DNA of 61,637 nt, filler included, from Sluysia triapertura (lineage: Eukaryota), in assembly GCA_046118255.1 (NCBI GenBank). It is 5 parts of 5 records of this genome, joined end to end, with 100 filler letters (N's around TTAATTAATTAA, not from the genome) between each part and the next. Parts side by side here need not be neighbours in the genome. Positions count along the whole stretch, not along the records: positions 35,994 to 49,250 come from JBJNIA010049561.1; 4 more parts are not named here. One strand, given 5' to 3'. How positions within the stretch are numbered: position 1 is the stretch's first letter; every line of letters begins with the position of its first letter. The notes below the pieces were generated by a model. The model saw only the letters and a program-made list of their open reading frames with translations, made no database searches and had not been told where the DNA came from. A program made the position numbers and the translations under genes. Positions 4,616 through 51,737 of the stretch are shown in pieces.

Positions 4616-4765
4616 TATTGTTGTTTATTTGTGGATTACTGGTAAATGGACCATATGCTTTAATTACAACAGCGGTAAGTACTGATTTAGGTACAAGTTG
4701 TGAATTGAAAACGTATCGTGCCTTGGCAACGGTTACTGCCATTATTGATGGTACAGGATCTATGG
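4616..4765 (+). CDS. SLC37A: SLC37A1/2-like sugar-phosphate exchanger (MFS), penultimate exon
   Basis: Bounded by ttcag and gttag. Translates to LLFICGLLVNGPYALITTAVSTDLGTSCELKTYRALATVTAIIDGTGSM-G, matching the SLC37A signature GPYALITTAVSADLG...ALxTVTAIIDGTGS. Confidence 0.93.
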
Positions 4766-4899
4766 GTTAGTTTGTAATTTTTAAATAGATTTTAAATTAA
4801 GATAAATTTGGACATTTATTTTCAATATATTATGTACAGAATAACGTTATCCTTAGGTGATTGAAAGATCAATATACAGTTTAATTGTAACACCTCTGC

Positions 4900-5900
4900 C
4901 AATTATATAACTTTTCATTTGAAAAGAAATTGTTGATCAAACAGTGTCTAACACGAACATGTTTCTGCTAACAAATTCTATAAACTTCAAAATTACTAAG
5001 CAAGATTTTTGGATTTACGTTTGTGTTAATTTCTTTTTAGGAATTATGATGGCCAAAAGTACGTCAGCCAAAGAGATTTGAATTCCTGAAACAGGCATAT
5101 CTTTTTTATTAAAATTGAAACTTTCGTACTAAAGGTAAAATAATATGATCCGAATTTACAAGTTTTTCTAATTTTGCCGCTACTTCCGCTTTGATAATAG
5201 AGCAACAAGAGACCCAACCAAGAAATATGCTTCTATAAATCTAGTTTGGGAACTTTTTATTCAGAATACCAAAACTTGCATTTCTCACTGCAGACGAATA
5301 ACTATGTAATAATCCTAATCGTTTTCTATTCAAATGTTATACCAACCAAACCAAGGAAATATGCAATCAAAATTTGATGTTTTTGTGATTCTATGAATTA
5401 ATACTATTATTGGCCAAATTTATGCTGTAAAAAATTCGGATTCTCGAGTGTAGTCGAAATTTTTTTGCATCGATGGGATTGGCAAGAAAAACTAAAATTG
5501 TTGGAGCTAATGTTAGATCAGAATTTTTATTCAATGACATTATCCTTGAGAATGATAAACCTGAAATTATTGAGTTATACAATTAATCGAAAGCTGTGTT
5601 ATATACTTTGAACCACCTTGTACGTTTCTACGGTACAAAGCGTAAAACTAGAACGTTTTGGATATTGCAGAATACTGCAGTCTTGTTCTCTTCGCAAAAA
5701 CCTATGTGGAGTATTTGCAAACCACAAAGAATATTCCTTTTGGATTTAGAAAAAGAATAGATTTCTACAGAATATGCATTCGCGAACAAAAAATAAAACA
5801 ATCCTAGAGAAACGCACATAAAGACACTATGTTTTTGACAATATGCGAAATACCTGTGCCTATATTCGTGTAAACTGAAAAATTGTAAAAATGTATTTTG
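4900..5900 (+). mobile_element. decayed piggyBac transposase fragment inside the SLC37A intron
   Basis: Shows LTADE (about 5284), KPRKYAIKI-like (about 5348) and KPEIIELYN*SKAVLYTLNHLVRFYGTKRKTR (about 5557-5652), with stops and frameshifts. Boundaries are approximate. Confidence 0.75.
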
Positions 5901-6754
5901 AAATAAATTTGTGCTTAAAAGATTTGGTTGATAAATTTTTTGCCAATCCCCTTTGAGGAAAAAATGCATTGCATGTTATTTTGCAACTTAGCATTAATAT
6001 TAAAACGAATATGTATGAGTTGTTTTTGAAAATTGCGCTTATCATCGATTTCTGTTTTTTTTTAAAATAAAGGATATAAACGTAAAACGATATTTATTTA
6101 GACAGAATTTTATCATTATTCCACATATTATTCCCACTTTATATGAAATGAAAAGATTTTGTATAATATATAGAAAATACTGCTTTATTTAGTATTACAG
6201 TTAGAACAATAAATGTTTCAATTCAATTCCGTATTAATTTTTAATATTTTAGGTAAATTCTATTGTGTAATCAATTTCTTGTAGTAAATATCATATTTGA
6301 TTTTAATATTGTCATTTAATTTTCATTTATAATATTGACTTAACCATATCACTATTTATTTATACATTCATTTTGTAGTTACGTGTACATTTTTATCACA
6401 TCTACATTAAAGACAGATTTTTTCGATCTTTCAGTGCTATCATATGATCCATAATTGTTAATTAAATATTATGAGTCATCCTCGATGTTTCTTACATTTT
6501 ATTTTTGTTTCCTTGATTTAAGAAGATTTTGAGATGCTCTGTTGATTTCAGAACTTTTAAGATATTTTTTTAAAGCTACGGAGATATTTAAAATATATTA
6601 AGATTATTCAAATTTACTTGTAAAATTACATTTTTGTTAATGTGGTATAACATTAGATTATTATTATTCTCATTATTTCACTTTTCGATTAATACTATGA
6701 CAATAGTCTTATTAATTTTGTAATTTATTAAACTAAATTATTTTTTTACAACAG

Positions 6755-7029
6755 GTGCTGCATTAGGTCCTTTTTTAACTGGTTGGATTGTACCATATGG
6801 ATGGAATAAAGTATTTCTTATGCTCATAGTAGCCGATATTTTTGCTTTAATAACAATGTGCTACATAATATTTTCAAATATGATGATCAAATTGCGTACT
6901 CGTGCTGATAAAATTAAATTCATTAAATATTTAACGAAACTACTTCGAACCAGAATTTTTATTGTTTTTTCATTTATTATCAGTTTAAGTTTTATTATTT
7001 TCGGTGTTTATCAGTTGAAGAAAAAATGA
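6755..7029 (+). CDS. SLC37A: SLC37A1/2-like sugar-phosphate exchanger, terminal exon
   Basis: The acceptor acag|GT completes the phase-1 Gly from the previous exon. Reads GAALGPFLTGWIVPYGWNKVFLMLIVADIFALI...YQLKKK*, in frame with ORF 6820-7029. Confidence 0.9.
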
Positions 7030-8590
7030 TTAAACTGGTGTTTAGTTTATTTCTTAATTTGTAACTAGTTTTAAAATACTATTAAAATTATGTGTGACCT
7101 CTTTTTTTGTTTGTTTGTTAAGTATTATGAATTTGATTTTTATTTTTAAAATTGTGTAAATTCGTAAATGAGGCAGAATAATTTAATCCGATTGCTGAAA
7201 ATAAAAATACCTCTACACAAGTATGTAGTCAAAATTATACTCAAAATTCAGGGCTTACAGTACGTAATATAACAAAATAAAAATATATTAAAAGAGGCTA
7301 GCTAACTAACGACACTAATAATAATATCACTAGAATTTAATCAGATACTGAAAGTCATGCATCAATCACGATGTGTTGGAGCAGCTTTCATGCAGAAAAT
7401 GAAGTTTTACTTAATCGTTTTCCTGTTACTTATGTTTTCTGCATAATTAACAAAAATGAGATCGCTGCAGAAGTTTAAAAGTGGAAATTAGTAGTAACTA
7501 CTTATTCTTTTGAGTCGTATATAATTAAATTTCATTAAAAATTTCCCTTGAATTTCTGTTGACTTCCAACTTATAATATCTGAGCAATTATCTAAAGTTG
7601 ATGGTATTTGTGACAAATAATACCCTTACTTTATTATCACATTAGAATTATTAAGCTTCTCGTCACAACCTTTTAAACTTTAAAAAATAATGTTAATTTT
7701 CGAAAAAAGAAAAGATTTTCTAGAACATTTATAAGTTTGTAGCTATATAAGTTAACAATAATTGGGTACAGTTAACTGTCAATTAAAATTCAGCTATAAG
7801 AATGAGATTAATTTTTCAGAATTTATGTTTGATCCTTATTAAAATGGATCAACAAAAAACAAGGTATTTTTCTACCGATATAAAATCAATTGGTGATTAA
7901 TTAACGATCGAGTTTATGAATTTTGTAACTAGCGACTATGATTAATAATGAATTCAACAGTTAGTATTTTAGTCGTGATTAAATACACTAAAATTTAATT
8001 CGATAAATTTGTCTAATATGAAACTATAGTGATAATGAATAAGTTTAGTGATAATAAACAAAATTGAGAGATGCTATTTTAATTTAACAGATTATTATTG
8101 AAATAATAATACAGCGATTTCTAATAAATTTTTACTTTAACGATCGAACCGTATTAAAAGATTTGAAAAGATATGATACTTTAAGCAAATGTTTCAAACT
8201 TTATGAACAAAAACTAACGATTAATCTTCAGCAATTACGCCTTCTTGAATGATCACAAATTTTTCCGAATCTTATGTTTTCCTCGTTTCAAATTCAATTA
8301 AATTTTTTAACGAATAATAAAAACTTTTCCAGTAAAATTCCGATAGAATTATCTGTTAAAATTTCGTTAAAATTGTTCGTTATTAAAATATTACTGTTTC
8401 ATTGAACCTTTACACTCAGTTTTATCGCTCTAGATTAAATGCTTTAATACGACTAAATTATGTCTATTTTATTATTTATTCAGTTTTATTTCTCTGAATT
8501 ATTATTATATTATTCATCATTATTATTAATAATAAATTTATTAATCGTTAGTTTTTATTAATCCGTTACTCATAACAGATATGAAGTACG

Positions 8591-9360
8591 TTGAAGAGTA
8601 AGAAAATCGAAAGTAACATTACTTTATTACAAGAACGGCCACTTTACGATGTAACCGGACCCAGCTAAAATTTATTTTGCCGTAGGTTAAGAATTACGAA
8701 ATCCACAGCAGAAGTTAAACTTGACTTGATAATAAATGTTAGGATTTTTAAGCGTTAAGGTAAAAAATATTTTGTTAAAAATCCGTTTATTGTTGAATTT
8801 AAAATTAAAATAAATGTATTATTAAATTTAAGCGTAATTGTTAAAATTTAATCTCAACGATAAATTCTTAACTTTATCTCAATATATCAAGCAATTTACT
8901 ACTATTATTTCAACGTAAAGACATGAATTTATACGAGTGAAACTAATAAATAACTAGTCAAACCTGTTTTTATGCAGGAGATAGGGACCCTATAAAAATT
9001 CATAAAAATATGCCGAAACTTAGAAAATAGCTTTAAAATATTTTGTTTTGCAAAAAAATCAAAAAAATATCGCACAAAACAGGTGCTTTATTAATTAATA
9101 ACCAAAATTAATTAATTAGTTTATTAAATAATTACGCATGTAACTAATAGGCCGAACCAAAAAATGTACGATGTTCAGTAATTCAAAATAAAATTTAATA
9201 ATTAAAACAATATCAATACAGAACTATGAATAATGTATTTGGAGGACTGCGGTCTTCTTAACTCGTAATCTACGGCAAAATAAATTTTGGCGTGGTCCGG
9301 TTACTGTAAACAACTTACAATGTAAAGTGGGCATTCCCGTTCGATTTTCTTACACTTCAA
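8591..9360. repeat. inverted pair of a dispersed ~110-bp repeat (MITE-like arrangement)
   Basis: 8591-8710 (ttgaagagtaagaaaatcgaa...cactttacgatgtaaccggacc...aaaatttattttgccgtag) is the imperfect reverse complement of 9245-9360. Related pieces lie at about 30-115, 30211-30292 and 52954-52980. Confidence 0.75.
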
Positions 9361-10485
9361 AATACTGCTAGAAAGTTGCAGGGTCATATTCCTCAGAAAT
9401 TTCAAATAAAACTTTTTTTAATATAAATTCTTGTAATTACTTTGCTTTAACGCCACAACTTCAACACTTTGATAAAATGATTATATATCCTGCAACTAAA
9501 TCACAAACCGAATAACAAATACAAATCTTAATGTAATTAAATTTTTAATAGCAAATTTTGGCTTTTTAATTAATTACAAATTATTATTAATAGTAAAGAA
9601 ATAAAAAAATAAAACAATTTAAAATTAAAACCTTTGTAAGGTCTTTAATTTTTTTTATAAATATAAAGTATTTGAGAAATGATTTTATCCCTCAGTAAAT
9701 CGGATGATCAGTAGATGTTATGTTGAAGTAAGAACAAATAATAGTTCGCAAACACTATTGTCGGTTTAGCGAAAAACAAATTTAAGGTTTAATAGATCAA
9801 ATCTTTTGTCATTATAAATGTTTTCTCATATTTTTATTTAGTGTATTTCAACTTAGGGTAAGTCGACTTCTCACTAATCTTAATAATAAAATCATGCACA
9901 TACGAAGCATTAATGAAAGTGATAAAATAATTATAAACGAAGTAAAAGCTAATTTTATAAATTTAAATATCAAATACCTCGTATTCAAGTTGAAATAAAC
10001 CTACGCCGGAGTTTAGTATCAAAAGTAGTTTCAAATATAAGGATAACTATTAGATCAAAAAGTAAAATGAAGAAAGATACTAATAATACTGTTTATTCCT
10101 CAACAAGAAATATAAGATGAAAAAGAAAAATTGAGCACTTTCTATAATAATGTAATCTTAATAAGGCTTACTCATAAAGTACTTGTAAATATTTTAAGGT
10201 CTTCTCTCATAAACTATGCAAATATGCTGCAAGTGTTTTATCTTAAAATTAACTTACTTACAAAATATCTAAGGGTCAGATTCCGCCTAATATCCACGCT
10301 TTATACCAATTCTGGAGACGTGTTATTAGGATTTATCAAAACTTACGTTAAATATAATAATGCCTTAAAAACTCAATATTAAAACTTACTCTCTTAATTA
10401 CTTCAAATTGAACTTAATATTAAAACTTAAGCTATGCTACTTAATAATTCGAAACTTTATGTTATGTTATATTTTGATTATGTCA

Positions 10486-10660
10486 CACTAGCCATCTTAA
10501 GGTCTAGTTCAAATAAAAAATTATAAGTACCACAAGCCTTCTTAAGGTCTTGCAGAAAAACGTTTTAAAAATTTTAATTAATTACTCTAGCCTTTTTAAG
10601 GTCTAGATCAAAAATAATAAACGAATTTAAAAATTTCACTAGCCATATTAAGGCCTAGTG
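10486..10660. repeat. array of four 23-bp hairpin repeats with non-repeated AT-rich spacers
   Basis: Units: cactagccatcttaaggtctagt (10486), cacaagccttcttaaggtcttgc (10531), ctctagcctttttaaggtctaga (10585), cactagccatattaaggcctagt (10637). Confidence 0.85.
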
Positions 10661-10851
10661 TCGAGAAAGAAATTTATTTTATGTATTAATAAAAACAAAT
10701 CCACACCTTAACGTATATTAATACAAAACTTATAAAAATGCTCAAAACAAATAATTAATCCGCAAACAAAATAATGTAAGAATGTACATAAATTTTTAAA
10801 TTTTTATTTGTATTTTTTAAAAATTTTTAATTTTTAAATTTATAAAAATAT

Positions 10852-10951
10852 NNNNNNNNNNNNNNNNNNNNNNNNNNNNNNNNNNNNNNNNNNNNTTAAT
10901 TAATTAANNNNNNNNNNNNNNNNNNNNNNNNNNNNNNNNNNNNNNNNNNNN
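10852..10951. other. artificial contig linker (N44-TTAATTAATTAA-N44)
   Basis: Identical 100-nt N block with an all-frame stop cassette. Confidence 0.98.
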
Positions 10952-11237
10952 ATGTTTGCATTAATTAATATTTATGCAGGATAAAAAAATTATTTGCCAC
11001 ACACCTAAAGAAATAATTATCTTAGTTTTGGTTTTTCATATGTAAAATTATTGCAGAAAAATTATTTATTACAGATTTAATATAAAAAATGAGATTAATT
11101 GATTTTCTTAATTTTAAAAATTTTAATTTGTTAAGTTAGTATTATTTTTATATACTTTTTTAAAATATATCTAATTTATTTACCTAATCTATTTTTAGTA
11201 TGTCAAAATTTGTGTTTAACTTTTAAACAAGATAAAA

Positions 11238-12423
11238 ATGATTAATATATCTAGCAAAGGCGACGAATTGTTAGAAACTCGTTTAAGTAATATTTTAGTA
11301 TTGTGATAAAAGTATATGATATAGATGAGGTTACAAATCCTTTAAATCCTACTTTTAATGAACAAGCAGCAATTGCGTTTTGTGAACAAGTTATTAAGGA
11401 AGTTGAAGGTCATCAAGTTGCTGTTCGTTTGTTGGCACATAAAGTGCAGTCTCCACAAGAAAAAGAAGCTCTTTATGCATTTAATGTACTTTTTAAAATT
11501 TTAATTGTTAAATTTAGTTAATTGATGAATGCGTCCGCCGATGTGGTTCAAAATTTCATCAAGAAATAGGAAAATTTAGATTTTTAAATGAACTTATTAA
11601 GATAATTTCTCCAAAAGTATGTTTGTTTAAATTTCACATTATGTCTTTACAGTATTTAGCTCGTAGTATGTCATCATCAGTTAAAATAAGGTGCACAGAA
11701 TGCCTTTATTGTTTATATAAAGGTTTACCTCATGAAACGAAAATTGCTGAGGCTTATAATATGTTGAAAAAACAAAAAATAATCCAGAAAGATCCAACAT
11801 ATATGGACAGTAAAGTAATAACTTTTTCAAGCATTTATAATTCAAATAGATATTTAGAGCCGATTGCAATGTTAAAAAACCTAATAGTATATTTGATAGT
11901 AGTAAAGAATCAGAAGTTAGTTTAATTACGTTGAATAATTAATTAAATTGTGGATTATGTAATAAGTGTACTTAATTATTACTTTTTAACATTTTATCTA
12001 GAAGTTATCGCGATTACTGAAAAGCAGAAACCCTGATGATTTGAGAGAAGCAAATCGTATAATTAAGAGTATCGTGCACGAAGTTTGTTATTTTAATTAC
12101 AAAAATCTACTTTTTCGAAATTATACTGCAATAACTTTGTAATATTAATTGAATATTTTGTCACTAATATGTCAAAAAATATTGTTACAATATTTAATAC
12201 AATAAAACTGTGTAGTATTTTTATTTTGAATTAAGAATATTTTATAATAATAAATTATTGGTCATTAAACAAAATTTTATTTTAGGATAATCAACGAATG
12301 GAGATGTTATCAAAACGTGCTCTAGAAATCGAAACAATGAAAAATAATATAAAATTGCTAAGTGAAATGTTAGGATGTTACAATGTGAATGAAACCACGA
12401 CTGATGATATGGATATTATGAAG
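11238..12423 (+). CDS. GGA: GGA (ADP-ribosylation factor-binding, Golgi-localised gamma-ear adaptor), exons 1-7: VHS domain and start of GAT domain
   Basis: Exons 11238-11286, 11325-11485, 11518-11616, 11653-11814, 11850-11915, 12002-12082 and 12286-12423 are all GT-AG and stay in frame. Spliced product includes LETRLNEVTNPLN, AVRLLAHKVQSPQEKEAL, CGSKFHQEIGKFRFLNELIKIISPKY, ETKIAEAYNMLKKQ, KLSRLLKSRNPDDLREANRIIKSIVHED and NNIKLLSEML. Confidence 0.95.
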
Positions 12424-15499: not shown

Positions 15500-17394
15500 T
15501 GATAGTAATTTAATACAGTATAACTGAACATTTAGTTATTGTTACATATTTGTTATTGCAATAAAGAAATAAGATAATGCTTTACACTATTTATACCACG
15601 ACTTTGTATATACCGATTTCGACCAAAAAGTGCCTTTGCGCTTGAAGTTGTCGCCGTATTTATTCTTTTATGGCGTTCTTTATACTCAACTGTGAGTTCT
15701 AACTGGAATAAAGTATTCCGATTAAATCGAGAATATTGTGCCCAGGTCATCTACGGGACTTACATTTTACACTATATTTTCTAGCCATTGGGTCAGTTAC
15801 AACGGCCACAAATTTGTGCTATTATAAAATTTAATTGTTTCTGGAAAACGTTTTATTGCTATTTTCCACTTGTACTTATTAAAAGTACTTTTTTGTTTGG
15901 CTTACTTTTATAAATTGTTAAAGTTGAACTAATAGATGCGTAAAGTTGCATTATGAAGCGTTTCATTTTTGCAGATTTTTGAAGTTCTGTAGTAACGTTC
16001 CTGACCCTGCCAGTAAATTGCTCATGAGCTTCAAAACCAGAGACTCACCTAATGAAATTGATACCGGTATTTTGTCTTTTCCCAAACATGGGAACCCGTT
16101 GATAATATGTTTATCCTTTACATCAGATGTCCGCCAAAATTTTATGTCACAACCGGTTTATTCGGTATGTATTGGATGAACCTACATCTAGCTTTAGTCG
16201 GAAGAGCTTTTCGTCAACTGCTTTAAATGAATGAATGCCATACTTTTGATACCAAAACATTTATTTTCTCTCAATTTGTCTTTTCTCGTCTTTTTCATCA
16301 ACCTGCAAGAATTTTAGTATTTTCATAAAGGAATTGGCTCATGGTATTCGAAAAAAATGAAGGATCCCATTTCTTATTCCATAAAAGCGATGCGTGGACA
16401 TTTTTTTGATCACGTAGACCACGTACGTACAAAAGAGCTATAAATGCTTCTAATTTATCTCTAGGTAATTTATTTTCCCAAACTCTTCGTGCTTCCACTT
16501 CCGTAGATTTTATAATGTATTCCGTAATGTGGTTGTCAAATAGTAAATAAAATGCTGTGCTTACCTTCCTCTTCATAACATTTCTTTCGGCATGTCCAGT
16601 TGTACCAGATATACCTTTGAAAATAATGTGAAAAGCTGGTCTCCCAGGAGAGGAACCTGTTTCGATTTTCTTCCAAACTGTACCGTCTAGAGCAATTTCA
16701 ATATTCTCTTGCTCATTGTTTTCTTCATTGTCTTCAGAATCTGTCAACAACCTATTTCTTTTTCGTCTTCTACTTGCATTCAAAGTATCTTCCTCTTCAG
16801 TGTTTGAAAATTATTTTCACATTTGCTATCGCTATCGATTTCATGGACACTTTCGGAAAATTCAGCCAACTCATCTTCTCTTTCAGATTCTGAACTTTCA
16901 TCAATCTGAGAGCATTCTTCATTTATATTACTTATATTACTCCTTCATTTATGAGATTCTGGACATCCTTAGGATTAGTTATAAACTAACGAAATAATTT
17001 AAAATAAAATATTATACATTTCTATTTACACACCTGAAATGGCAATTTCAACTAATTTTACGACTGCGAAGGAAATACAAAAACTCCAACACTATTACTT
17101 CAATGATCTGCAGTAAAATGGAACATTGCAAATAGCAACCGAATATAAAAATTATAACGGTAATTTCTCTATCTTCTATTACAATTGAAATGGTGTTGCC
17201 AAATATTAAGTGTAAATTAACTTAAAATTTGAAAATGTTGTAAAATCGTACTAGAAATAGCTATGCCAGCTGAAGTAAAATTTAAATTTAATAAATTTAA
17301 CAATTATTATACGAGAAGTCAAAACATGAATTGAGAAAAAATGGTTAAACTTAGAAAATAATTTCAAAATAAAATGTTAAAGGTAGAAATAGTG
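15500..17394 (-). mobile_element. piggyBac element remnant inside GGA intron 7
   Basis: ORF 16298-16783 has an acidic N-terminus and FYLLFD...LEAFIALLYVRG...LW...FSNTMS. Downstream are VDEKLF (about 16215), IINGFPCLGKD (about 16090) and NVTT (about 15995). The terminus ...gtagaaatagtg|TTAA lies at 17394-17398. The left boundary is approximate. Confidence 0.88.
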
Positions 17395-21417: not shown

Positions 21418-21816
21418 TTATTGCATACACAAATAATGGAAACCATTTTTAATTAAAACAATAAAAAATTTATGCATATTTTTTCTCAAAATAGAACTGA
21501 CTAATGACTGGAATAGAAAGTTGACTATTTTAACTTTTTTATCAATATTTATTAATTCTTTTGACTATAAAGATTTAACCTTTTCAATCCTACCAATTAA
21601 TTTCTAATAAATGTTTAATTTCCTGTCTTGGGATATTTTCGCAGTTTTTGCGCATTACACATTAGTAGTATTCAGAACGTCTCATGAAGTGTATGTCTCT
21701 AGATATAAAAATACTCTGGGAAAATATACGTTCCACCAAATTGCTCAATTACTAATTTAAAATTTGACATACTGAACATATTTCACATATTAGGTTGTCA
21801 TCACAACCCTCTAAAA

Positions 21817-22070
21817 CCTGGTTTCTCAGCTTTTTAACCCGCGACCCAATAAAATTTTTTCAGACTGCTCTGTGACCCAATTTTTTATTACATAAAGGAA
21901 TTCTAAGAAATAAAAGACATTCGCGTTTTGATTGTACAAATTAATTTTTTTAATATAGTTTATATTTATATTATAATATATATTATTTATACTAAGCCGC
22001 GAGTTCGCGACCCATAAAAAATTTAACGCGACTAAATATTTGGTCACGACCCAACGGTTAAGAAACCGTG
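21817..22070. mobile_element. hAT (Charlie/Buster-type) MITE with 8-bp TSD
   Basis: TSD ctctaaaa at 21809-21816 and 22071-22078. TIRs are cctggtttctcagc and gttaagaaaccgtg, with repeated (c)gaccca subterminal motifs. An inverted second copy lies at 50730-50959. Confidence 0.92.
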
Positions 22071-29960: not shown

Positions 29961-30359
29961 ATAAATTTAAGCTGTTAATTGTATCACTTTTTCTGTCTTC
30001 TGCCTTTTTAGTATTATAATGAATATAATAGAACATTTTGTAAAAGGGTTAAATATGTTATATTTTAGAATAATTAAAAATGGACAAATTATAGAAATAA
30101 TAATTAAATTCAGATCCTTAGATAAGAAAGAATAACAATTATATAAGTGCATAAAAGCATCACTAATTTTATATCAAAGGTACGCTAATAATTATTAACT
30201 TAAAGTTACATGAATGCCCACTCTACGTTGTAAGTCGTTTATTGTAACTGGACACTGCTAAAAAATATTTTGTGTTATGAAAACCGCAGCAATTGGTAAT
30301 ATTGAAAATTTTATTCAAATATTCGACAATTATTTTAATTCAAACTTTTTACATTTTAG

Positions 30360-30926
30360 GTGTAACAATATGGGAAATTTTATCTTATGGTGCTACACCG
30401 TACGCAGAATTGAAAGCTAGTGAAATTTCTTCACACATTATTAATAGAAATAAATTACCGAAACCAATAATAGCTTCTACTTTGGTTTATTCAACACTTT
30501 GTTCTTGTAAATATTTTTTTATATTTTATAACATTACAAAATTATAGGTTGGTCAGAAAATCCTGCATTCCGATTGACATTTGAAGATTTATTTACACGA
30601 TTTTCTAATTACCGTCGACATTCTACTTATTTTTTAAACATTCCGGTAAATTTAATATTTTTACAAATTATATATTATTAACTAATATAAGTATGACATT
30701 TATATAAAAAAATTTCAGAACGACAAAAGTTTAATTCAATCTGCAAATAGTTGTGCGGATTATAATCATTTTGAAATGTTGAATATTAGGAATCATAAAA
30801 AAGGATATCGACAAAATTCAAATCAATCGGTTGAACAGATATCAGTTAACGATACTATTTATACAGATATTAATGATTATATGGATAACGTACATAGACA
30901 ACAATCTATTTTTAGTAACACATCAG
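30360..30926 (+). CDS. EGFR: EGFR/ErbB-family receptor tyrosine kinase: end of kinase domain and start of C-tail (3 exons)
   Basis: Exon 30360-30506 (147 nt) reads GVTIWEILSYGATPYAELKASEISSHI...LPKP. Exon 30548-30645 (98 nt) reads CWSENPAFRLTFEDL...YFLNIP. Exon 30719-30926 encodes a Tyr-containing tail. Junctions G|VT, C|W and the post-kinase phase-0 intron coincide with vertebrate EGFR exons 23/24. Confidence 0.85.
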
Positions 30927-31850: not shown

Positions 31851-32129
31851 TCATCCTAGATCTAAAGATACATACCTGATATACAAAATCATGGTAGAAA
31901 TAATGTTAATATCTTTTTTCAGCATTCAATGAAACTATTACTCAAAAGACCTTAAAATAAATCAGTGTTACCACATTAAAGACAGCATGTGATGAAAACC
32001 GTATAGCCTGAATTCCCGCATATTTTGCTGAAATTATATAAATTAAAGGTAAATTATATAAAATATACGCTTGATTATATAAAATATACCAACTGATTTC
32101 GGACCCTATATATGTGATGCTGAAATACA

Positions 32130-34750
32130 ATACAAACGAAATCCTAACCTTAGCAACCTGACATCCGAGCCACCCGGCAACTCATCAGATCAACAGATCA
32201 ACCCATCTTCGAAAATCAAATCCAATCCCTGTACAACAAACTCCAAAATACTAGTGACATCCCGATAGATGAAATATTCCAATCCATATGTGATGCTATC
32301 CAACGGATTAAGCCACCCAAATTCCCAAACATTATGGCACAACACAAAAGAAGCTTGCAACGCGAAACGCTACAACCCAGATTGGACAAGATCTTCACTG
32401 AAAACCAAGCCAAAGCATTCCATATAATTACTGGAATAGCCAACTCTCCTACCAATCCCACACCAGAGGAAATCTGCCAGTACTTCAGTAGTGGAATAGT
32501 ACCACCGTTCGACCCACTTAAAGTCACTCACTTTCCAACATTCATGGACTATAGACTAGTGATCCCATCCTGGAGATTTAGATTCTCACCACTCTCAAAT
32601 ACTGCAAGCGCTCATCACCAGGTCACAACCAAATAATGTTCGAGAATTTAAAGGATGCCGATCCCACTGGTCAACCAAAAGGTCCAGACTGCTTGGAAGA
32701 ACTACAACACTGTATTGATAATCAAACCCAATAAATATGACTTGGCACAAGGCGTCGATTCATAGAAGCCTATAGCTATAGTGGACTGCAGTTATAGAGT
32801 CTTTGCCAAGATCTTGAATGACCGTTTACTGGCATGAGTCAAAAGTGGCAACCTCAAAGTACACACCAAGCTGCTCTTCTCCAATCAGATTGATACACCG
32901 AGCACAACTTCCAACTCCACTCACTTAGAGAAATAGTGGAGTCGATAAATCACAGGAAATCGCGCAAAATCGAATTACACATCGTCTTACTCGACTTGGT
33001 TCGGTGCGGCACAATCTGATATGGTATACACTTTCAAGTATGGAACTCCAACAGCAAACCCTGAACATCCTGAAGGACCTATACCAAGACAACAGTACCA
33101 CCTACAAATGCAATGGCATTATAACCAAACCCGTACCGATCATGTATGGAGTAAAACAAGGATATCCATTATCCATGACGCTATCTGATCAACCAGTTCA
33201 CGGATGATGACTACATCAAAATAACTGATGACCTAAAATTTCTTCCATACCTGGAATATGTTGACGACACAGCCCTCATCGTCACTACTTTCGACAGACT
33301 ACAACAAATTGTCAACGGAGTTGTCCAAAATGCGAAATCAGCCAACCTCATATTCCGGCCTACAAAATGCTTCTACGACAACATGCCCGGCTCGAGATAT
33401 TCACTACTAATCGAAAATACTCCGATTCCCTGTGTCACTATTCTGTGACTATAAACGGCAAAGTTTATTAATACACCGAACTAGTCTCGAAATCAAAACT
33501 GAGTGCCCGGAATAAGTTCCTCATATACAGAAACTTTGTGCAGTCCAGACTTTCGTTCCACCTAAGGAACCTGAATATCAATGTACAATCCCTCAGCAAT
33601 CCCCATCCTAAAAGCACATCCAAAGATATAAGAACTGCTGAAAATGAACAGGAGTTTCTTTCTTGCACACAGGAACCATGGAGGACTCAGCCTAACCTGA
33701 GCATATGACGACTACGTGTGTCAGAACGTGATGTGCGTTCAGACTATTCAATAGTCATAAACCGATAATACGCACACTGACACATCGGAAAGTTGTACAG
33801 ATAGCCAACAGCCGGATGAATGGAGATTGTGTGGATCTGACCCAAGCTCTCGCATGGCTCAATGGAAGTCCTACGGATAAGCGCACTCGGTTGCAAACCC
33901 GAACTTCTACCAAGAACTTGGAACAAAAGTATCGGATCAGTGCTTCATTCATCTGCTCTGACAACTACAATGTCTAACAATCCTTGAAGTCGGACATACT
34001 TGGCGACAACCCAATCATTATTAGCCACTACCAAAGAACAAAGTCGGAAAATACCTACACGAGCTGATCAGCACTTGCAATAACAATATCTGGAAGTCTA
34101 AAGTGCCAGGGTATCTATGTCGACTCTCTCATGCAGTGCCTACTCTCCAACAAATCCCTGTCACTTGAACTGGATGTTTAGTCTTAGTCTTAATTTCAGT
34201 CCACAGAACATGCGTCTCTATGTGCCAGTATCACGTCGATGGTGTGGCTTCGAATCTGAATCCCTTCTACACGTGCTCTGTCTATGTTCTCACACAAGCA
34301 CAGCCAGAACAGTCCGGCACAACAAAATCCTTAACTACCTAGTGGACAATATGACCGATAATCTCGGTCATCAAGGATTCGCATGCACCAATTATCGGTG
34401 AGTCTCGACGACCTGACATAGAGGCCCGCGGTACTTCCTCATCGCAACTGTTCTTGATTGATGCCAAAACTCCATGGACCTGAAGAAAAATTTCGAAATA
34501 GCCCGAACCACAAATATTGCGAAATATGCTGATCTCCAGGGCAAACTGCAGAAACAACTGAAGTGCAAGGTGTCTCTGGATACATTCGTCGTTGGAGCGT
34601 TTGGTTCATGGGATCCCTAGAATGACAAGCTTCTCAAGGCGCTTGGCTTCCACAAGACCGAAATCAAGACCCTAGTACGACTAGCTGTGAAGTCCTCAAA
34701 TAACGCATGCTGCGACCATGTCCTACAAGGTCCTTAAAAAGAGAAAGAAA
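32130..34750 (+). mobile_element. decayed non-LTR retrotransposon with RT and restriction-like endonuclease (NeSL/Utopia/R5-type)
   Basis: GC-richer island. RT motifs: KPI...YRVFAKILNDRL (about 32770-32830), GVKQGYPLS (about 33150-33175), YVDD (33257). Then a degenerate CCHC (RWCGFESESLLHVLCLC), RHN (34315), RRPDI (about 34407), LIDAKTP and FVVGAFGSWDP*ND (34585-34626), followed by an A/G-rich tail. Many stops and frameshifts. Confidence 0.9.
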
Positions 34751-34792
34751 AGACTAAAACTATTATATTAATACGTTTTTTTAATCATCGAA

Positions 34793-34839
34793 CTGCGCAG
34801 CGAGAAGTCCCGGGTTCGATCTCCGGTCAGTCCATTTTT
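34793..34839 (+). ncRNA. 3' half of a tRNA-like sequence (tRNA pseudogene or tRNA-SINE head remnant)
   Basis: gcgagaagtcccgggttcgatctccggtcagtcca-TTTTT contains a variable loop, a T-arm with B-box GGTTCGATC and a T-run. No A-box or matching 5' acceptor strand upstream. Confidence 0.6.
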
Positions 34840-35031
34840 CGAAGTCTAACATATATCTAATATAAATAATAAAAATTCGGAAACCAAAATGAATGTCTTT
34901 CATATAAAATCCACAGTGATAATGAAGATAGGTGATAGGGTATGAATCATTTATGGAACCAAATCACCAAAGGTTTATTAAATATTTAAGAAAACGACAA
35001 ATACTTACAATTTCAAAAATATTTTAGTAAG

Positions 35032-37319: not shown

Positions 37320-38141
37320 ATGGGCTCTTCCAAATCTAAAGAATTGGTAAGAGATCAACCAAATGTAAGTATTTCTGAATGTCCAGTACAGCACGTAAAT
37401 AATTCATCATCCGCTGGCCAAAGTCAAGCATCTCATAAAATAAGTTTATCTTGTCCAGTTGGAGAACAAATTGATCTATCAAACATGATGCCTCCTGCTA
37501 ATCAAAATCCAAGCCCAGATCAACCTTTTTTATTGTCAACAGATAGGGTTGTATCTTCAATTCCGAAATTTGGCGATAAAGAAGATGAAAACTGGGTATA
37601 TCCGTCTGCTCAAATGTTTTGGAATGCGATGATTCGTAAAGGTTGGCGTTGGAAAGATGATGATATTAAAGTCGAAGACATGGATAATATAATAAAAATA
37701 CATAATGTTAACAATGAATTGGCTTGGCGTGAAGTACTTTTATGGGAAAGCATGCATTTTGACGAATGTAAAACTCCAAAGTTAAAAAGATTTGGTGGTA
37801 AAGCAAAAGATTATTCTCCACGTGCAAGATACCGACATTTAATAGGTTATGAATATCCTTTTGATAGACATGATTGGGTTGTTGATAGGTGCGGAAAAGA
37901 AATTCGATATGTGATTGACTACTACGATAGTGGTAATGTCGATAAGAATTTTCAGTTTGCATTGCTTGATGTACGTCCAGCAATTGATTCGTTACAGTCA
38001 ATAATTGATCGCCTTAAAGTTACTTATTGGAGATATACGAATACTAATCCAAATTTACCTTCAATTGAAAAATATTTCAAGTCAAGTAAAGAATCAAGTA
38101 TATCTAATTCAAGTAAAATGGAACAAGTTAAAAATTCATAA
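37320..38141 (+). CDS. HCCS: holocytochrome c-type synthase (cytochrome c heme lyase), single exon
   Basis: 273-aa ORF with an MGSSKSK N-terminus, two CPV heme-regulatory motifs, [66 protein letters not shown] and LDVRPA. Confidence 0.97.
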
Positions 38142-42900: not shown

Positions 42901-45423
42901 CTTCAGAAAAATGATCCATATCATAATTTTTTTATGGTTAAGCATTAGATGTCAAATGATAACATTAAAGAAATTTATCTTTGTCATATTTACCTAACCT
43001 TAATATCACTGTAATATATTGGTTACGTTAAAGAAATGTTTAGCTTGTCGTCCATTTAAAAATAACTTTAGTGTGGGAAATGATGTTTTATTTTTTTTTA
43101 ATTTTTTATGAATTTTTATTTGATTTTCCATTATTTATTATGTTAATTATTAATTTGTTGACTTGGTTATTAAAATTTTTATCAACACTCTTAAAAAACA
43201 TTACTTAGGTGCTAATTGCAGTTAGACAATTCATTATTATTCTTAAAATTTAAATTGTAGATAAGAAATTATGAAATCAAATTTTATTTCTGTTAGAAAT
43301 AGACAAAAGGAGGGATTATAATTCAATCGTACACAGGTCACTTTTGGTCAATGTTGAATAAAAATCTTAGTAACTGAGATAAATTTGGTAACAGTAGCCT
43401 TTATTACAGAACGTAATTTCCACGATAGTTGTCAGAACAGTGTCCAATCTACTTAGGTCTTAGATAGTGCCGCCGAGGGTCGATACAATTATACATACTA
43501 GATGTTTGAGCGATGAACAGCCTACACCGCCTACACTGAATACGTATGCGTAACGACTTCGACCATATCGTCAACTCGTGATGTTTAGACGAAGCATATG
43601 ATATTATTTCTATTTGTGTTAATATTACGTTGTTTGAAGGGTAATTAATTATTAAAAAATAAAACTTAAAATTATTTACAACACAAACACTCTTAAGATT
43701 AAAACTACAAATAAGAAAAGACAACTGTGCATATTCTTGTATGCAAACTAATTATATAATACGTTAAACAATTTTACTAAAAAAGAAACAGTACTTCACA
43801 ATACATTGACTAAACTAATAATCGGATCGTCAAATATAAAATTGGAAATATTGTTCGTATAGTGAACAACCTGAACATCGAACCGCAGTAACAAAATATC
43901 TAGATCTGACATAGTATGCCATGCCTGTCTGATGATAGTTTCATTTAATTAAATTATCTGTAGTTATCATACTTCTCTTGCATTTTAAATCACCATCTGC
44001 AAAATCTTTTTCTATGGCATCTGGTTTATGATATTTCAAATGGTTCGTCATGCCAACAATCTAAAACATTCGGAGCTACTAAATAACAATCATTTTAAAT
44101 GCCGAGCTGACGTCTTTACGTACGCAAACATCGGGATCGTTGTCTTGTAACTCAGGTTTTGGAATCCTCATCTGAAATCTATCTACATTAAATCCAACCA
44201 GATTAGCTCCGGATCGCACATTGTAACATTTTTATTAATTTTTGTACAATTCCAAAAATAATACCAAGGTCAACTTCTATATAGTTTTTGATTCAATGAA
44301 ACAATTTAATGTCTTTAAACAACCTATTTGTATTCTTTAATTTTTCTTTTTTTAATTCCTTGGCTTAGAAGGAATTGTATAAAATATAATATAAATATAA
44401 TATAATATAAAATGTAACATAATAAAATATAATACAAAATATAATATTGTCAAATATACATACAATATGAATGGCAAATATGAACATTGATCTGCAAATG
44501 TGGATACAACATATTGATTTATAAATGTAAAATATTCATTTGTTAATACAAATCTATTTGTAAATAACGATAATATTGATTTATATGTAATTTAAATATT
44601 GATTCATTTAAATTATTTTACGGATATTAAATTAACGTTTTAAAGAAGGTAAATTATTTTTAATTATTTTTAAAATCATCTTTATAAAGTAATAAAATAA
44701 TAAATAAATAGTTTGTTTTTTGGGAATATAAAAATTTTTATCTTTTATTTTGTTTTAAATCGTTATTGACCTTCAAGGTCACATGTTTAGTATTTAATAG
44801 AAAATATGTTAAAATCTCAAGCAAAAATACAGAAAACTCATTAATACTGACTTTCTTATATTTTGGCATTAACGTTATCAAAGCTAACCATTGTCTTCTG
44901 ATACCAGAAAAGAATCTCATTATTAAACATCCGTCATTTGTCTTGTCAAATCGTTAGTTTAATTGTTTAGGATATTTTGCAATTTTACCACTAAAATACC
45001 ACTAAAAATCTTTTAAAATATTATAGAGCTACTATTTAATAAAGTAGCTGATTAAAATACTTTTTCAAATATATACATATACCAAGATTATTGTAACAAT
45101 CCTTATAAATTCATTTATTTTATTGTTGTATTTTCATTTTATTATTTAGTAATATAATTTCATACTAATTTGGTGCATTATTATTTAACAACAAATAAAT
45201 TTAAAATTGCTTTGTGGTTCATTTTTAAGAACCAAATTAAAATCTTCTTTAATTAAAAACTTTCATAAATTACTAGAAAAGTTTTGGTTGAAGAAAGTAG
45301 AAACAAATTAATTTCCTTAAATATTAAGATTGTGGAAATCAAAAGCTAGCCCTGACCGGTACGTTGATGGACTCACTACATTTATTTTATCCACAAGCTA
45401 AAGAAAAATCTAGCAGAATAAAC

Positions 45424-45440
45424 TGGTACCCAGGTTGAGG
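45424..45440 (+). promoter_or_regulatory. candidate tRNA primer-binding site
   Basis: TGGTACCCAGGTTGAGG lies about 350 nt upstream of gag and just downstream of a dispersed repeat. It starts with TGG (complement of tRNA CCA). The cognate tRNA was not verified. Confidence 0.45.
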
Positions 45441-45789
45441 AACAGCATACAATAATTAATTGATACTAAATTATAAAAATTCCAAAGTTATATAAGTTTA
45501 AGAAGAATTTAAGAATTTAAGAATACAAGAAAATTTTTAGTTAAGGTATAATTGCAATTTCACTAAAGATATGTTATCTTTGAGTATTATTATATCCAAA
45601 GTTATTAATTAACAGTTTTATAAAGATTATACTTTAAGTAAGTGAGTTTTAAGTAAAAATAGATAAACAAATAGTATTATACAACGATTACAGAACAAAA
45701 TTAAGAAACTATATGGCATTGCATAACGATTTTAAAGAATATAAGGTCAGTTAGCAAAAGAGATACGTCCCATATTAACTTTACCAGAA

Positions 45790-46815
45790 ATGAGCAAATT
45801 TAATGGAGCAGAGGAAGACCTCTGTGATTTCCTTTTTGAATATGAAAGCATTGCCGAAGCAAATGGCTGGAATGAAATTGAGAAAGTTCAAATAATACAA
45901 AACTATTTAACACGAGCAGCAATCCAAATCTATAAGGAAATAAGTAACATTGATAAGAAATCTTGGAATGCATTTGTAAATGCTTTTACCAAGGATACAG
46001 TCCTCGATGATGTGACAAAACATTATTCAGAGAAATTAAATTTAAGACAACAAAAACCAAATGAAACTATATATGAATTCACATCCGCTCTTGTTGCCAG
46101 GACAAAAGTCCCTGAAGATAAAAAAGAATCTACATTATTGGATAAGTTGAAAACTGGCTTTCGTCCGGAATTAAGGACATATGTTACATTAATGGAGAGT
46201 AAACATTTTAAGGAGATAATTAAAAAGCTAAGAAGTATGGAAAGGTCTTATAGTGATGATAGAGATAATATTAATTATGTAAGTGATAATGATGACAAAT
46301 ATAAAAGAGATAAAAGCCCAAAATTCAAAAGAAATAAAGATAATTTTGATAATTATAATTATAGATATACGGATAATTCCTCAAATTATGACGAATATAA
46401 TAATCGAAATAATTCTTCAAATTATAATTGAAATAATTCTTATGATGGATATAATAATAATAGATTTAATGGCCCACGTAGAGGCATCTCAAATAGTTAG
46501 AAGGATAATTCAAACAATTATAGAGGAGATAATAACATAAGTAGAGGATTTCCGAATAGTAGAATAAGTAGTTATGAGAAAAGTCCAGCACCGAGATGGC
46601 CACCTAGTTCTAATTTTAATAAGAATAAGAGTATGAGTCCAATAAGATATGAAAACAATAAGACTCAAACTAATATAGATGGAAAGATAATCTGTGACAA
46701 CTGTAATAAAAAAGGACATTACGCAAGAGATTACAGAAAACTAAGGCAGAATGTGCTTACTCAAGACTTTACTAGAGTAGAGATATCAAAGCCCAAATGG
46801 AAAAGTAAGGTTTAA
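45790..46815 (+). pseudogene. retrotransposon Gag (capsid, Asn-rich linker, degenerate zinc knuckle)
   Basis: ORF 45790-46431 reads KFNG....FLFEYESIAEANGWNE..K...YL...A...W..F..AF...LNLRQQKPNETIYEF...G..PELR. The frame continues through stops to ICDNCNKKGHYARDY (ORF 46633-46815). Confidence 0.88.
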
Positions 46816-47386
46816 TAATGATAATAATAAGAATTATAAGGAAAAAATAAATTGAAATTATAGAAATCCAAAGGATTATAGAAATAACAGAAATGATTAT
46901 GAAAATGAAAACGAATATCAATGAGAAGAAAAGAAATAACAATAGAAGAAAACCAAAAAGAAGAGAAATAAGTAGCGATGAAGAAGATGATAAATACCTT
47001 AAATTAATTACCGACGAGAAAAAGAATGCTATGCTTAGAGAATTTTATATTACTGGCTTGATTGTGATAAAAATAGATTTAAAAATAAACAAGAAGAAAT
47101 CTTTATGAGTTACATGCATATTAGACACCTAGAATTTCAAAAGGATAATCAAAGAAGGACACAACGAGAAAAAGAAGAAAATAGACTAACAATACAACCA
47201 ATTCAGGTTAGAAATACAAAATCAACCAATGGATAAAAGAAATAAAAGAAGTAATTACAAACGACGATAAAAGAAAAATAATTCAAGAATAATCAATAAA
47301 TGGGAAGGTAATGTAAGGAAAATTGAACTAAATAGGAAAAATGACAAAGAGATATATTCAAAGAGATATATAACCCTAAAGATTTA

Positions 47387-47581
47387 ATGAAAATAAGTAT
47401 AATTTTTAATAGTGCTTTGAATATTACGATGGAACTCCCATTAACGTCAATTGTAAAAGATATTATAGAATTACTCGGGTTAAATTATTCAACTATAACT
47501 GATGTTGATTTATATTTTTATGATAGAAAATTATTACCTAATGATTATATAAATGATTACGGTTATCCATCAATGAATTGA
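47387..47581 (+). pseudogene. ubiquitin-like domain ORF within the retroelement
   Basis: MKISIIFNSALNITMELPLTSIVKDIIELLG...DLYFYDRKLLPNDYINDYG follows the ubiquitin pattern MxIxV...ITLEV...V.D....I...RLIFxGKxL...LxDYG. No C-terminal GG. Confidence 0.5.
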
Positions 47582-48060
47582 GACAATTAGGAAGCATCAA
47601 TGATTTCTGCAGTTATTATGTCATACACTCAACCTTCGAACTATTTAAATAAATTAAATGAGCTTATAAAAGATGATAATGATGTTGATTTTGATAGAAC
47701 TCGACTATCACTATTAAAAGAATTAATGGAAGATGATTATAATAATAATTATTATTATATGGATCGTTGTAAAATTATAGACATTACTAATGATAATGAT
47801 GATCTTATTGGAGAAAAAACTGATTACATAGTAGACTTAAATAAAAACCCATATATAGAAACAGAATATAAGGAAACAAATACATTTAAAAGAAAACAGG
47901 TAGATCTGGAAGAAATAAAGATAATGATGAAATAACAATTCCAAATCCAATACATAAATAACCCATTAATTTAAGAAAATGTACTTATAAAAATCTAAAA
48001 GAAACACTAAATACCAGAAGCATAATTTATGCATTATTATCTACTTTCGATAATTATAAA

Positions 48061-48370
48061 ACATTATTACCTGAATTAAACGAATATAAAAGGACATTAT
48101 CAAAAATAATTAAAAAGATGGAAAAAAATATAAAAATACGAATATAAGTGATTAATACAATGATAATAATTAATACAAACCTATTATAACCAAACAAGTT
48201 AACACAGGAATTAATAAAGAAAAACTTAAAATTATAAAAGCTTATATAATATTTCAATGTAATAAAGTTGATTAATAACTAATGAAATGATATATAAAGT
48301 TATAAATTTTACTGAAAAGAAACTTGGTGCTTGGATAAAGGAACAAGGAGGATGGAAAAATATTATTAAA
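48061..48370 (+). pseudogene. Bcl-2-family-like segment (clear BH2; putative degenerate BH3 and BH1)
   Basis: MIYKVINFTEKKLGAWIKEQGGWKNII (48287-48367) matches BH2 (Bax LDFLRERLLGWIQDQGGW). Upstream segments RTLSKIIKKMEKN and NTGINKEKLKII lie in other frames at Bcl-2-like spacing. Confidence 0.55.
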
Positions 48371-48459
48371 GAAAAAGAAAAGAATAGATTCAACGAACCA
48401 CTTAATATGATAACAAAGTTAATTAATAATAAAGAAATATTGGCATTATTTTGAATTCA

Positions 48460-49030
48460 TCTAGAAAATCCTATTAAACTTTTGACTGCAGTCAACCCCA
48501 AATTTTATTGGACACATTTTTTTATTGGGCACTGAAGATTGTCCAGAATCAAGACCAAACAGAGTCAAGATAAAATACATGAAAATACTTAATGTTTATC
48601 AATAAAGGAATTTAGTTAAAACACTGGTAAAGGGATGTTTAGTTAAAAGATCTGTAGTTATTTAGTATTGTGGTCATCACAGTCACTCATCGATAATAGG
48701 TATATAATCTATTATATCCATTTAAGATATCTCCTAATAATTGTCGTGACGCTTTTGAAACTGGATGTATAAGTTTAAATAAAGGGGACAAATTAGGAAC
48801 AACGAGAAAATAATTTATAATGTAAGGTCATTAGGTAACGTACTTTTGAAAGTGGGAAGAAAAATTTATCACGATGTAGTGGCTCAAGAAACATGTGTAT
48901 TAAGTTTAAGATCTTTTAATGAAAGTTTTGATTTCGAGAAAGGAAGTATGATGTCACGACCATTCTGTAGAAGTGACCAAACAAGTTGTGATACTGGTAA
49001 ATCTATACTAATATACGAATTTGAAAATTT
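48460..49030 (+). pseudogene. env-like fusion glycoprotein related to chuvirus (Jingchuvirales) G, N-terminal part, decayed
   Basis: Across frameshifts: FDCSQP...EDCP...LNVYQ...GCLVKRSVVI*YCGHHSHSS...ISPNNCRDAFETGCISL...YHDVVAQ...FCRSDQTSCDTGKSILIY. The order and spacing match chuvirus G (YDC...C...Q...C...R...YCGxHSHxS...C...ETG...VVVQ...C.....C). Confidence 0.75.
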
Positions 49031-49250
49031 TCAGTACCCATTAATTTTTTTCAAACAAATTAAATTTAATTTAATTTCGGGATTTCATCAAAATGAATAT
49101 GAATTAGCTGTAGAAGAATTTATTGTTGTTATTATTATTAAATGATTTAAATGCATAAAATCTTATAAAAGCCTCTTTTACACGATCTGTTCTTTATCTT
49201 ATGCTTTTCTTACATATATAGTGAAATAAAAGAAAAGACGCAAATGTTGT

Positions 49251-49350
49251 NNNNNNNNNNNNNNNNNNNNNNNNNNNNNNNNNNNNNNNNNNNNTTAATT
49301 AATTAANNNNNNNNNNNNNNNNNNNNNNNNNNNNNNNNNNNNNNNNNNNN
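49251..49350. other. artificial contig linker
   Basis: N44-TTAATTAATTAA-N44. Confidence 0.98.
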
Positions 49351-50729: not shown

Positions 50730-50959
50730 CATTGTTTTTCCACCGCGTCAAATTTTTTATGGGTCGCGGACTCGCGCCTTAGTATAAATAATATAATGTA
50801 ATATAAATATAAACTAAATACAAAAAAATTAATTTATACGATCAAAACGATAATTAGCGCCAATAGTATATGTCTTTTTATATATGTAATAAAAAATGGC
50901 TTGCAGAACAGTCTGAAAAAATTTTATTGGGTCGCGGAGTAAAATCTTGAGAAACGCTG
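50730..50959. mobile_element. hAT MITE, second inverted copy of the 21817-22070 family
   Basis: ttttttatgggtcgcg.actcgcg.cttagtataaataatatata...cagtctgaaaaaattttattgggtcgcgg...tgagaaacgctg is the reverse complement of copy 1. Confidence 0.88.
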
Positions 50960-51737
50960 TTATAATCGATATAAAGACCATGATTGCTTCGTCAAGAATT
51001 GGATTCGATATAGAATTTTATTGGCAATTGAATGATTGAAATGGATCTTCAGCAGATTTATTATTAAATTGACTATTATCATGTTTATATGTGGTTTTTA
51101 CTTGAAGACTCTAATAACGAAGACAGTAACAGCAAGACAAATCTGAGTTCTATTTAAACTATTAATTTTAATACAATTGAGTCTATTATGAAAGTATAAG
51201 CTATGTAATAATGATCGAAAACCATTTCATATTATTAATATTTATTACTATTATCAATAAAGTCTAGCATTTGAAATATAATGTTTGTTTTATTAAACAA
51301 AAAGTCGTGTTTTTAATCAAAATAGAAATCATTCTATTGTTTATCGATATAAGTATTGGCTTAATGTCATAAATAATAGATATTTCATTAAATAATTATT
51401 GAAGCAATATTAATGTATAAATTATGAATTGAATAAATGAATAATGTTTTAATATTGTTTTCATTAAAGTTGTTTAGGAATATATCGGAAAACTCTGCTT
51501 TCTTTAATGAGACTGAATCACGCCACCAAAACGTTACCAGTGATATAATTAACCGCCTAACAGTGGGATTTTTTGAGAAAAGGGGTAAAAAATTTGTCAC
51601 TATTTTTATTTGACTACATTTATTAATACAATTAATTAATTATAATAAATTTACTCAATAAAAGTAAAACTAAGCTTCTAACTATTGAAGATTTATTGAT
51701 ATTCCAATAAAATTTATAATATTAATAATAATGATAA

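Follow-up and report, generated by a model that had tools for sequence, protein, structure and literature searches.

Burro/GYPSM1 elements are giant gypsy-like long terminal repeat (LTR) retrotransposons of planarians, in which the first open reading frame (ORF1) is described as encoding, in order, a Ubi2/SUMO-like domain (PF11976), a BCL2 domain, an envelope protein (env) and a protease (PR); decayed copies, interrupted by stops and frameshifts, have been noted in Dugesia japonica (PMC6431247). The gB-type errantiviruses of Platyhelminthes, Bryozoa and Nematoda (e.g., Smed_errantivirus_1-6) have the order gag-env-pol and an envelope that has been likened to chuvirus envelope genes, and neither a ubiquitin-like domain (Ubl) nor Bcl-2 is mentioned for them in the available part of that work (PMC13524379). 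In arthropods, no gypsy capture of a chuvirus glycoprotein was found (PMC10084718), and a literature search combining gypsy, monjiviricetes and env returned no paper. The present analysis concerns a retroelement copy in a 61,637-nucleotide stretch of DNA from Sluysia triapertura (GCA_046118255.1), here called the window, in which gag, a Ubl, a Bcl-2-like domain and env follow one another.

The presence, order and spacing of these four modules and their high repetition in one sequencing run are directly observed. The window copy itself produces none of the element's products, and every module contains stops and frameshifts. Very probably it is a dead copy, truncated at its 3′ end, of a Ty3/gypsy-type element that is highly repeated and has the layout gag-Ubl-Bcl-2-env; the missing pol would likely have followed env, as it does in the planarian Burro-type elements. 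An initial annotation had taken the locus for an enveloped Ty3/gypsy-like element, dead in this copy, whose Ubl, Bcl-2-like and chuvirus-type env parts belong together, and order, repetition and relatives agree with that reading. The same annotation had taken the combination to be undescribed, which does not hold, as planarian Burro elements have it (PMC6431247) and gag-env-pol elements with a gB-type env are reported in flatworms (PMC13524379). The compact element is likely new, with an already published, Burro-like layout.

As far as the published description of Burro goes, the likeness consists of a gag with a CCHC motif, followed by Ubi2/SUMO-like, BCL2-like and env parts between gag and protease, and of a very high copy number. 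In the window, Ubl, Bcl-2-like domain and env stand in this order downstream of gag; no protease lies upstream of env, and the relatives in which a protease is seen have it downstream of env. The window differs from Burro in that ~570 bases separate the end of gag from the Ubl, leaving no room for the MATH/TRAF, Smc and midasin-like parts, and Pfam gave no match of the MATH/TRAF kind between gag and Ubl; no BIR was seen in the part of the element that is present. Furthermore, the window has one knuckle, whereas two or three are described for Burro, and the Burro env matches mononegavirus fusion glycoproteins and was assigned to gypsy Env by HHpred (PMC6431247), whereas the window env matches PF24664. 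Because the large cargo between gag and Ubl that marks Burro proper, an element of >30 kb, is lacking, and because host, LTRs and reverse transcriptase (RT) are unproven, the element is termed Burro-like rather than Burro proper. With the gB-type errantiviruses it shares a chuvirus-like, gB-type env and, judging from relatives, the gag-env-pol order; by eye, six S. mediterranea errantivirus env rows (PMC13524379, supplement 2) share the words YQE, CG-HS, C-AF-TG and PFC-C-TG-S with the window and its matches.

Modules of the window copy

The features of the copy, in positions of the window, are as follows.

44485–45420, plus strand: candidate 5′ LTR, a moderately repeated non-coding region with putative ends (summed contig depth 74–1090, against 2–25 at 44314–44484)
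45424–45440, plus strand: primer-binding-site (PBS)-like word starting TGG, which occurs once
45790–46251, plus strand: gag capsid domain (independent E-value, iE, 2e-23 with the profile of relatives)
46252–46815, plus strand: gag linker rich in Asn/Arg, interrupted by two stops, its CCHC knuckle damaged (about 46693–46734)
46816–47386, plus strand: frameshifted charged linker containing the word CILDT, no protease (repeat depth 9e3–4e4)
47387–47629, plus strand: ubiquitin-like domain, two stops lying close to its end
47630–48180, plus strand: acidic linker, then the disrupted beginning of the Bcl-2-like domain; in the Ubl frame up to 47932, without Pfam match, its spacing fitting that of relatives
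48183–48260, plus strand: BH1-like helix without NWGR, in a different frame from BH2 (score reached by 14 of 2000 shuffles)
48272–48382, plus strand: BH2 region with WIKEQGGW (PF00452, E = 0.002; 0 of 2000 shuffles)
48383–48477, plus strand: decayed spacer where relatives carry a hydrophobic env signal segment (best 15-residue hydrophobicity mean 1.2)
48478–49115, plus strand: N-terminal third of the env ectodomain, Monjiviricetes-type (gB-type), in four frame pieces
49251–49350, no strand: assembly gap shortly 3′ of the element, past which neither a continuation of env nor pol is present

The env ectodomain matches PF24664 (Monjiviricetes_fusion) at E = 1.5e-5, which assigns it to the herpes simplex virus (HSV) gB/chuvirus type, and it matches the profile of relatives at an iE of 9e-36 over 48495–49097. 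The chuvirus-G-like glycoprotein initially placed at 48460–49030 was thus upheld, with tblastn similarity continuing beyond 49030, to 49115. Fold assignments of Ubl, Bcl-2 and env are made here from sequence profiles. When env (read with X) was compared with 1.84e9 representatives, 24 matches were obtained, the best at E = 3e-21; a Pfam scan covered 16 of these and found PF24664 in all 16. Two retrieved proteins, P0022 and P0026, could not be matched to the window by tblastn and resemble noise from low-complexity sequence. In 16 of the 16 relatives listed, the hydrophobic run ends just before a [YF]DC word. The env alignment matched no solved glycoprotein by sequence, a word search with the env of P0005 returned four proteins, all unnamed, with no named chuvirus G among them, and two scans of viral contigs gave 0 loci.

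The Bcl-2-like assignment is centred on the BH2 region. Its PF00452 match lies below the curated cut-off; 24 of the 26 PDB sequences matched by the Bcl-2-like part belong to the Bcl-2 family, and the BH2 motif of that family is present by sequence. The BH2-bearing segment first proposed at 48061–48370 is retained in its BH2 portion and given up in the frame at 48061–48260, where 277 of 2000 shuffles reached its score against the relatives' Bcl-2 profile. An ESM Atlas search with the Bcl-2-like part of L001, a related metagenome locus, gave no usable match.

The Ubl alone found no match in Pfam and none in a single-sequence PDB search. Against profiles of the relatives' Ubl, its score was reached by 1 of 1000 and 7 of 2000 shuffles. 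A three-row alignment including it retrieves ubiquitin, ISG15, ubiquilin and SUMO; in ESM Atlas, rank 10 of 30 was a cluster of which 22% of the members belong to PF11976 (score 0.90). The ubiquitin-like ORF marked at 47387 is therefore accepted. No terminal di-glycine occurs in the alignments of the window and its relatives, so conjugation is unlikely; the likeliest role of this domain would be that of a docking or decoy module for ubiquitin/SUMO binders. The "unknown acidic ORF" at 47600–47935 shares the Ubl frame after two stops and occupies the position of the relatives' Ubl-to-Bcl-2 linker; it had been taken for a gene of its own, which it probably is not. Directly 5′ of the Ubl, a helical domain of ~70 residues is conserved in L001 (1729–1959), P0006, P0008, P0009 and P0021, for which no Pfam or PDB identity was found.

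Retrotransposon-type capsid and CCHC nucleocapsid, the combination seen in Metaviridae, are both present in the window. The capsid gave tblastn E-values of 1e-13 with the protein P0009 and 1e-14 with P0016. A two-row alignment of the window gag and the L001 gag matched the Drosophila dArc2 capsid (E = 6.5e-5, profile positions 6–162); the same alignment scored an unrelated designed PPR protein at E = 3e-5 over 69 positions. The gag with a zinc knuckle that had been annotated at 45790–46815 stands as to frame, capsid and zf-CCHC profile (E = 0.002), with the reservation that its frame has two internal stops and that its single knuckle has lost the fourth ligand. A gag word search among proteins of 374–2000 aa, a weak test, yielded 0 of 995 candidates.

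Upstream of gag, the PBS-like word at 45424 is present as first noted, inside a local peak of repeat depth (1960 in its bin, against 74 and 63 in the adjoining bins). Together with the repetition of 44485–45340, this peak is consistent with an LTR and, 3′ of it, a conserved primer site. There is no CA immediately 5′ of the word, no tRNA gene within the window and, within the window, no second copy of 44485–45420. Hairpins occur inside the candidate LTR at about 45211–45295 (z = -2.46, 2 of 200 shuffles), where other copies show many loose ends and local joints.

Repetition was assessed with contigs of one sequencing run (X1) containing part of the stretch (share 0.21), which may come from the source sample; no RNA data set is listed as containing it. 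On 43000–49240, 6830 contig pieces were placed, of which 3008 are <90% alike. Summed contig depth, which is not equal to copy number, ranges from 3.6e3 to 7.8e4 in 16 of the 17 bins of 45717–49240 and is 658 in the bin of the Asn-rich linker; three contig pieces identical to the window have depths of 14–19. The high depth and the divergent pieces together indicate a large, diverged family that covers all modules.

Order in relatives and alternative explanations

The same arrangement is found in independent relatives. In P0009, which matches both gag and env of the window, gag-CCHC-Ubl-BH2-env lies in one frame. L001 has a 999-codon frame with gag-CCHC-Ubl-Bcl-2, then one stop and env, and a second metagenome locus, L002, carries Ubl-Bcl-2-env-PR-RT-RNase H-integrase within a single 3426-codon frame. 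The spacing is likewise comparable: knuckle to Ubl spans ~231 codons in the window and 197–334 in relatives (n = 4), Ubl to GGW 320 and 284–394 (n = 4), and GGW to env start ~45 and 48–81 (n = 6). P0016 matches both gag and env of the window and has neither Ubl nor Bcl-2.

The initial annotation had placed the accessory block between pol and env. Among the 16 scanned env matches, however, retropepsin occurs in six, two of which also have RT-RNase H-integrase, and in all six these domains are downstream of env, none being upstream; the block thus probably sits between gag and pol. This bears on the idea of a gag-pol-accessory-env element in which deletion has left nothing of pol but a protease stub, for which the word CILDT at 47115 and the usual gag-pol-env order, with extra ORFs known between pol and env (PMC6431247), could be cited. 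The alleged stub (47115–47129) lies within an 8-codon stretch closed by a stop, lacks the G of D[TS]G and matches no retropepsin profile built from 11 domains of relatives. Hydrophobic-D[TS] words number 14 in the six frames of the window, 0 with a following G. Additionally, the distance from knuckle to Ubl equals that of relatives without pol in that position. Such an element is very unlikely, and the protease stub is not maintained.

With the PR, RT, RNase H and integrase of relatives, no match was found in the whole window, including beyond the gap (best E 0.4). This lack of pol would also be expected of a non-autonomous, high-copy gag-Ubl-Bcl-2-env-fragment unit that never had pol in this genome and was moved in trans. 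In its favour, env similarity and the A-rich skew of the strand both stop at 49115, ~135 bases short of the gap, and contig joints that skip up to 2.3 kb show that deletion forms exist. On the other hand, 21 contigs have loose ends at 49085, so other copies continue past this point, and at the start of gag other copies differ at third codon positions in 7 of the 9 listed places, as expected for coding copies. A unit of this kind is accordingly considered improbable, and a truncated copy of a complete gag-Ubl-Bcl-2-env-pol element is preferred.

Several observations weigh against this preferred reading. Within the window, no RT, second LTR or target-site duplication was found for the element; gypsy membership and the position of pol consequently rest on relatives that are 25–40% identical. 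The likeness to Burro is drawn from published descriptions. Support in the window copy appears modest for both the Ubl and BH1, and the NWGR word is missing from the BH1 position in the window and in all six aligned relatives. The helical domain found before the Ubl of five relatives is undetectable in the window. The BH2 word was found in 4 of 16 proteins and is absent in P0006, P0008, P0010 and P0016; since 12 of the 16 relatives are without it, and some have the Ubl alone (P0006, P0008) or neither domain, the cargo is optional. In the env tree of 20 rows (9 of the 24 matches, short or low-complexity, were omitted, and P0151, L001, L002 and the window were added), the window row is unplaced on a long branch. 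The host is likewise not fixed by the tree of a holocytochrome c synthase (HCCS) frame elsewhere in the window, which rejected none of three placements (approximately unbiased P: flatworm 0.38, insect 0.24, annelid 0.35). Finally, no single X1 contig spans the whole block, so that the modules are presumed to be co-linear among the copies of this organism.

The lack of a spanning contig would suit a chance nest, in which a gypsy gag, pseudogenes of host Ubl and Bcl-2 genes, and a glycoprotein from an endogenous chuvirus were inserted separately; Jingchuvirales glycoprotein insertions often adjoin gypsy fragments without evidence of capture (PMC10084718). A nest does not account for independent relatives that show the same order and spacing in single frames, nor for the fact that all modules lie on one A-rich strand and all are highly repeated, and we regard it as highly improbable.

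Anakin, a mosquito LTR element with a captured chuvirus-type glycoprotein (PMC7642597; PMC12440569), raises the further question of a BEL/Pao element as glycoprotein carrier. Anakin differs from the present element in its superfamily, BEL/Pao, whereas the pol profiles of relatives are gypsy-type (RT_RNaseH, Integrase_H2C2, gag-asp_proteas), and the order PR-RT-RNase H-integrase with a gypsy-type RT, absent from the window, is present in P0006, P0010, P0028 and L002. Anakin is not known to carry Ubl or Bcl-2 cargo. The capsid match to dArc2 and the single knuckle also speak against BEL/Pao, and Pfam found no Pao-type gag or peptidase domain in the window or relatives. A BEL/Pao origin is thus extremely improbable, and the gypsy-type gag-Ubl-Bcl-2-env element remains the favoured reading.

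Some relatives are more elaborate. The L002 frame (2–10282) codes for several retropepsins and for two additional parts resembling membrane proteins, one preceding RT and the other following integrase, and a separate ORF at 10617–12107 encodes an RNase T-type exonuclease (PF00929, E = 1.4e-5). P0028 (4844 aa), P0008 and P0010 are env-pol polyproteins with many tandem retropepsins (up to 7 stretches) and ankyrin and C2H2 parts. P0006 (HBK71150.1), a gypsy Ubl-env-pol polyprotein, is filed under a Flavobacteriaceae metagenome-assembled genome and is probably eukaryotic DNA in a bacterial bin.

Surroundings in the window

The window has a G+C content of ~24% and contains host-type genes (VHS domain, kinase exon, HCCS) and piggyBac fossils outside the element. 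The HCCS frame at 37320–38141 (plus strand; PF01265, E = 1e-57) is uninterrupted and forms a long branch; identity is at most 64% among the 120 matches listed, the best being a trematode. Pieces of the VHS-domain host gene lie at 11291–11925 (plus strand) and a protein kinase exon at 30281–30544 (plus strand; PF07714, E = 2e-8), and piggyBac-type transposase fossils (PF13843) occupy 1752–2893 and 16298–16810, both on the minus strand. A G+C-rich block (0.41–0.43) at 32000–35000 holds an RT fragment (33179–33445; RVT_1, E = 3e-4) of another decayed retroelement, and a small dispersed repeat is present in two inverted copies, 78–81% alike (21812–22030 and 50744–50964). The gaps at 10852, 23362, 35894 and 49251 each consist of 44 N, a 12-base A/T linker and 44 N, and are read as the assembler's spacer.

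Proposed biology of the lineage

In a working ancestor, the LTR would drive one RNA, primed at the 45424 site and translated into a single long polyprotein. Before env, the hydrophobic segment would insert into the endoplasmic reticulum membrane, and cleavage by signal peptidase would release the env ectodomain on the lumenal side. Gag, Ubl and the Bcl-2-like domain would remain cytosolic, with the hydrophobic segment serving as the membrane tail usual for Bcl-2 proteins. The env transmembrane helix would then bring the chain back to the cytosol, where RT, RNase H and integrase would be excised by retropepsin.

The likeliest use of the Bcl-2-like domain would be to delay host cell death, keeping producing cells alive, with about even odds. 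The NWGR word of BH1 is part of the BH3-binding groove and is needed for BH3 binding, and its absence weakens such a role. The role is favoured because the domain is kept across relatives ~30% alike and because a captured IAP-type part of Burro1 reportedly guards planarian stem cells against apoptosis (PMC13465017, citing Lee 2026).

A broader interpretation is tentative, and we consider it possible rather than probable. The element may represent a compact, old and widespread enveloped gypsy lineage in which an NWGR-less Bcl-2 domain is fixed 45–80 residues before the env signal segment, and anchored by it, across those relatives. Such a lineage would be infectious and retrovirus-like, with a dedicated cell-death modulator; the giant Burro would be one inflated branch of it, and this genome would hold a very large family. 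The Bcl-2-like domain is the next part of interest. The intact relatives L001, L002, P0009 and P0021 are better objects than the decayed half-copy in the window. A compact family retaining just the Ubl, the Bcl-2-like domain and env indicates the lineage's minimal cargo.

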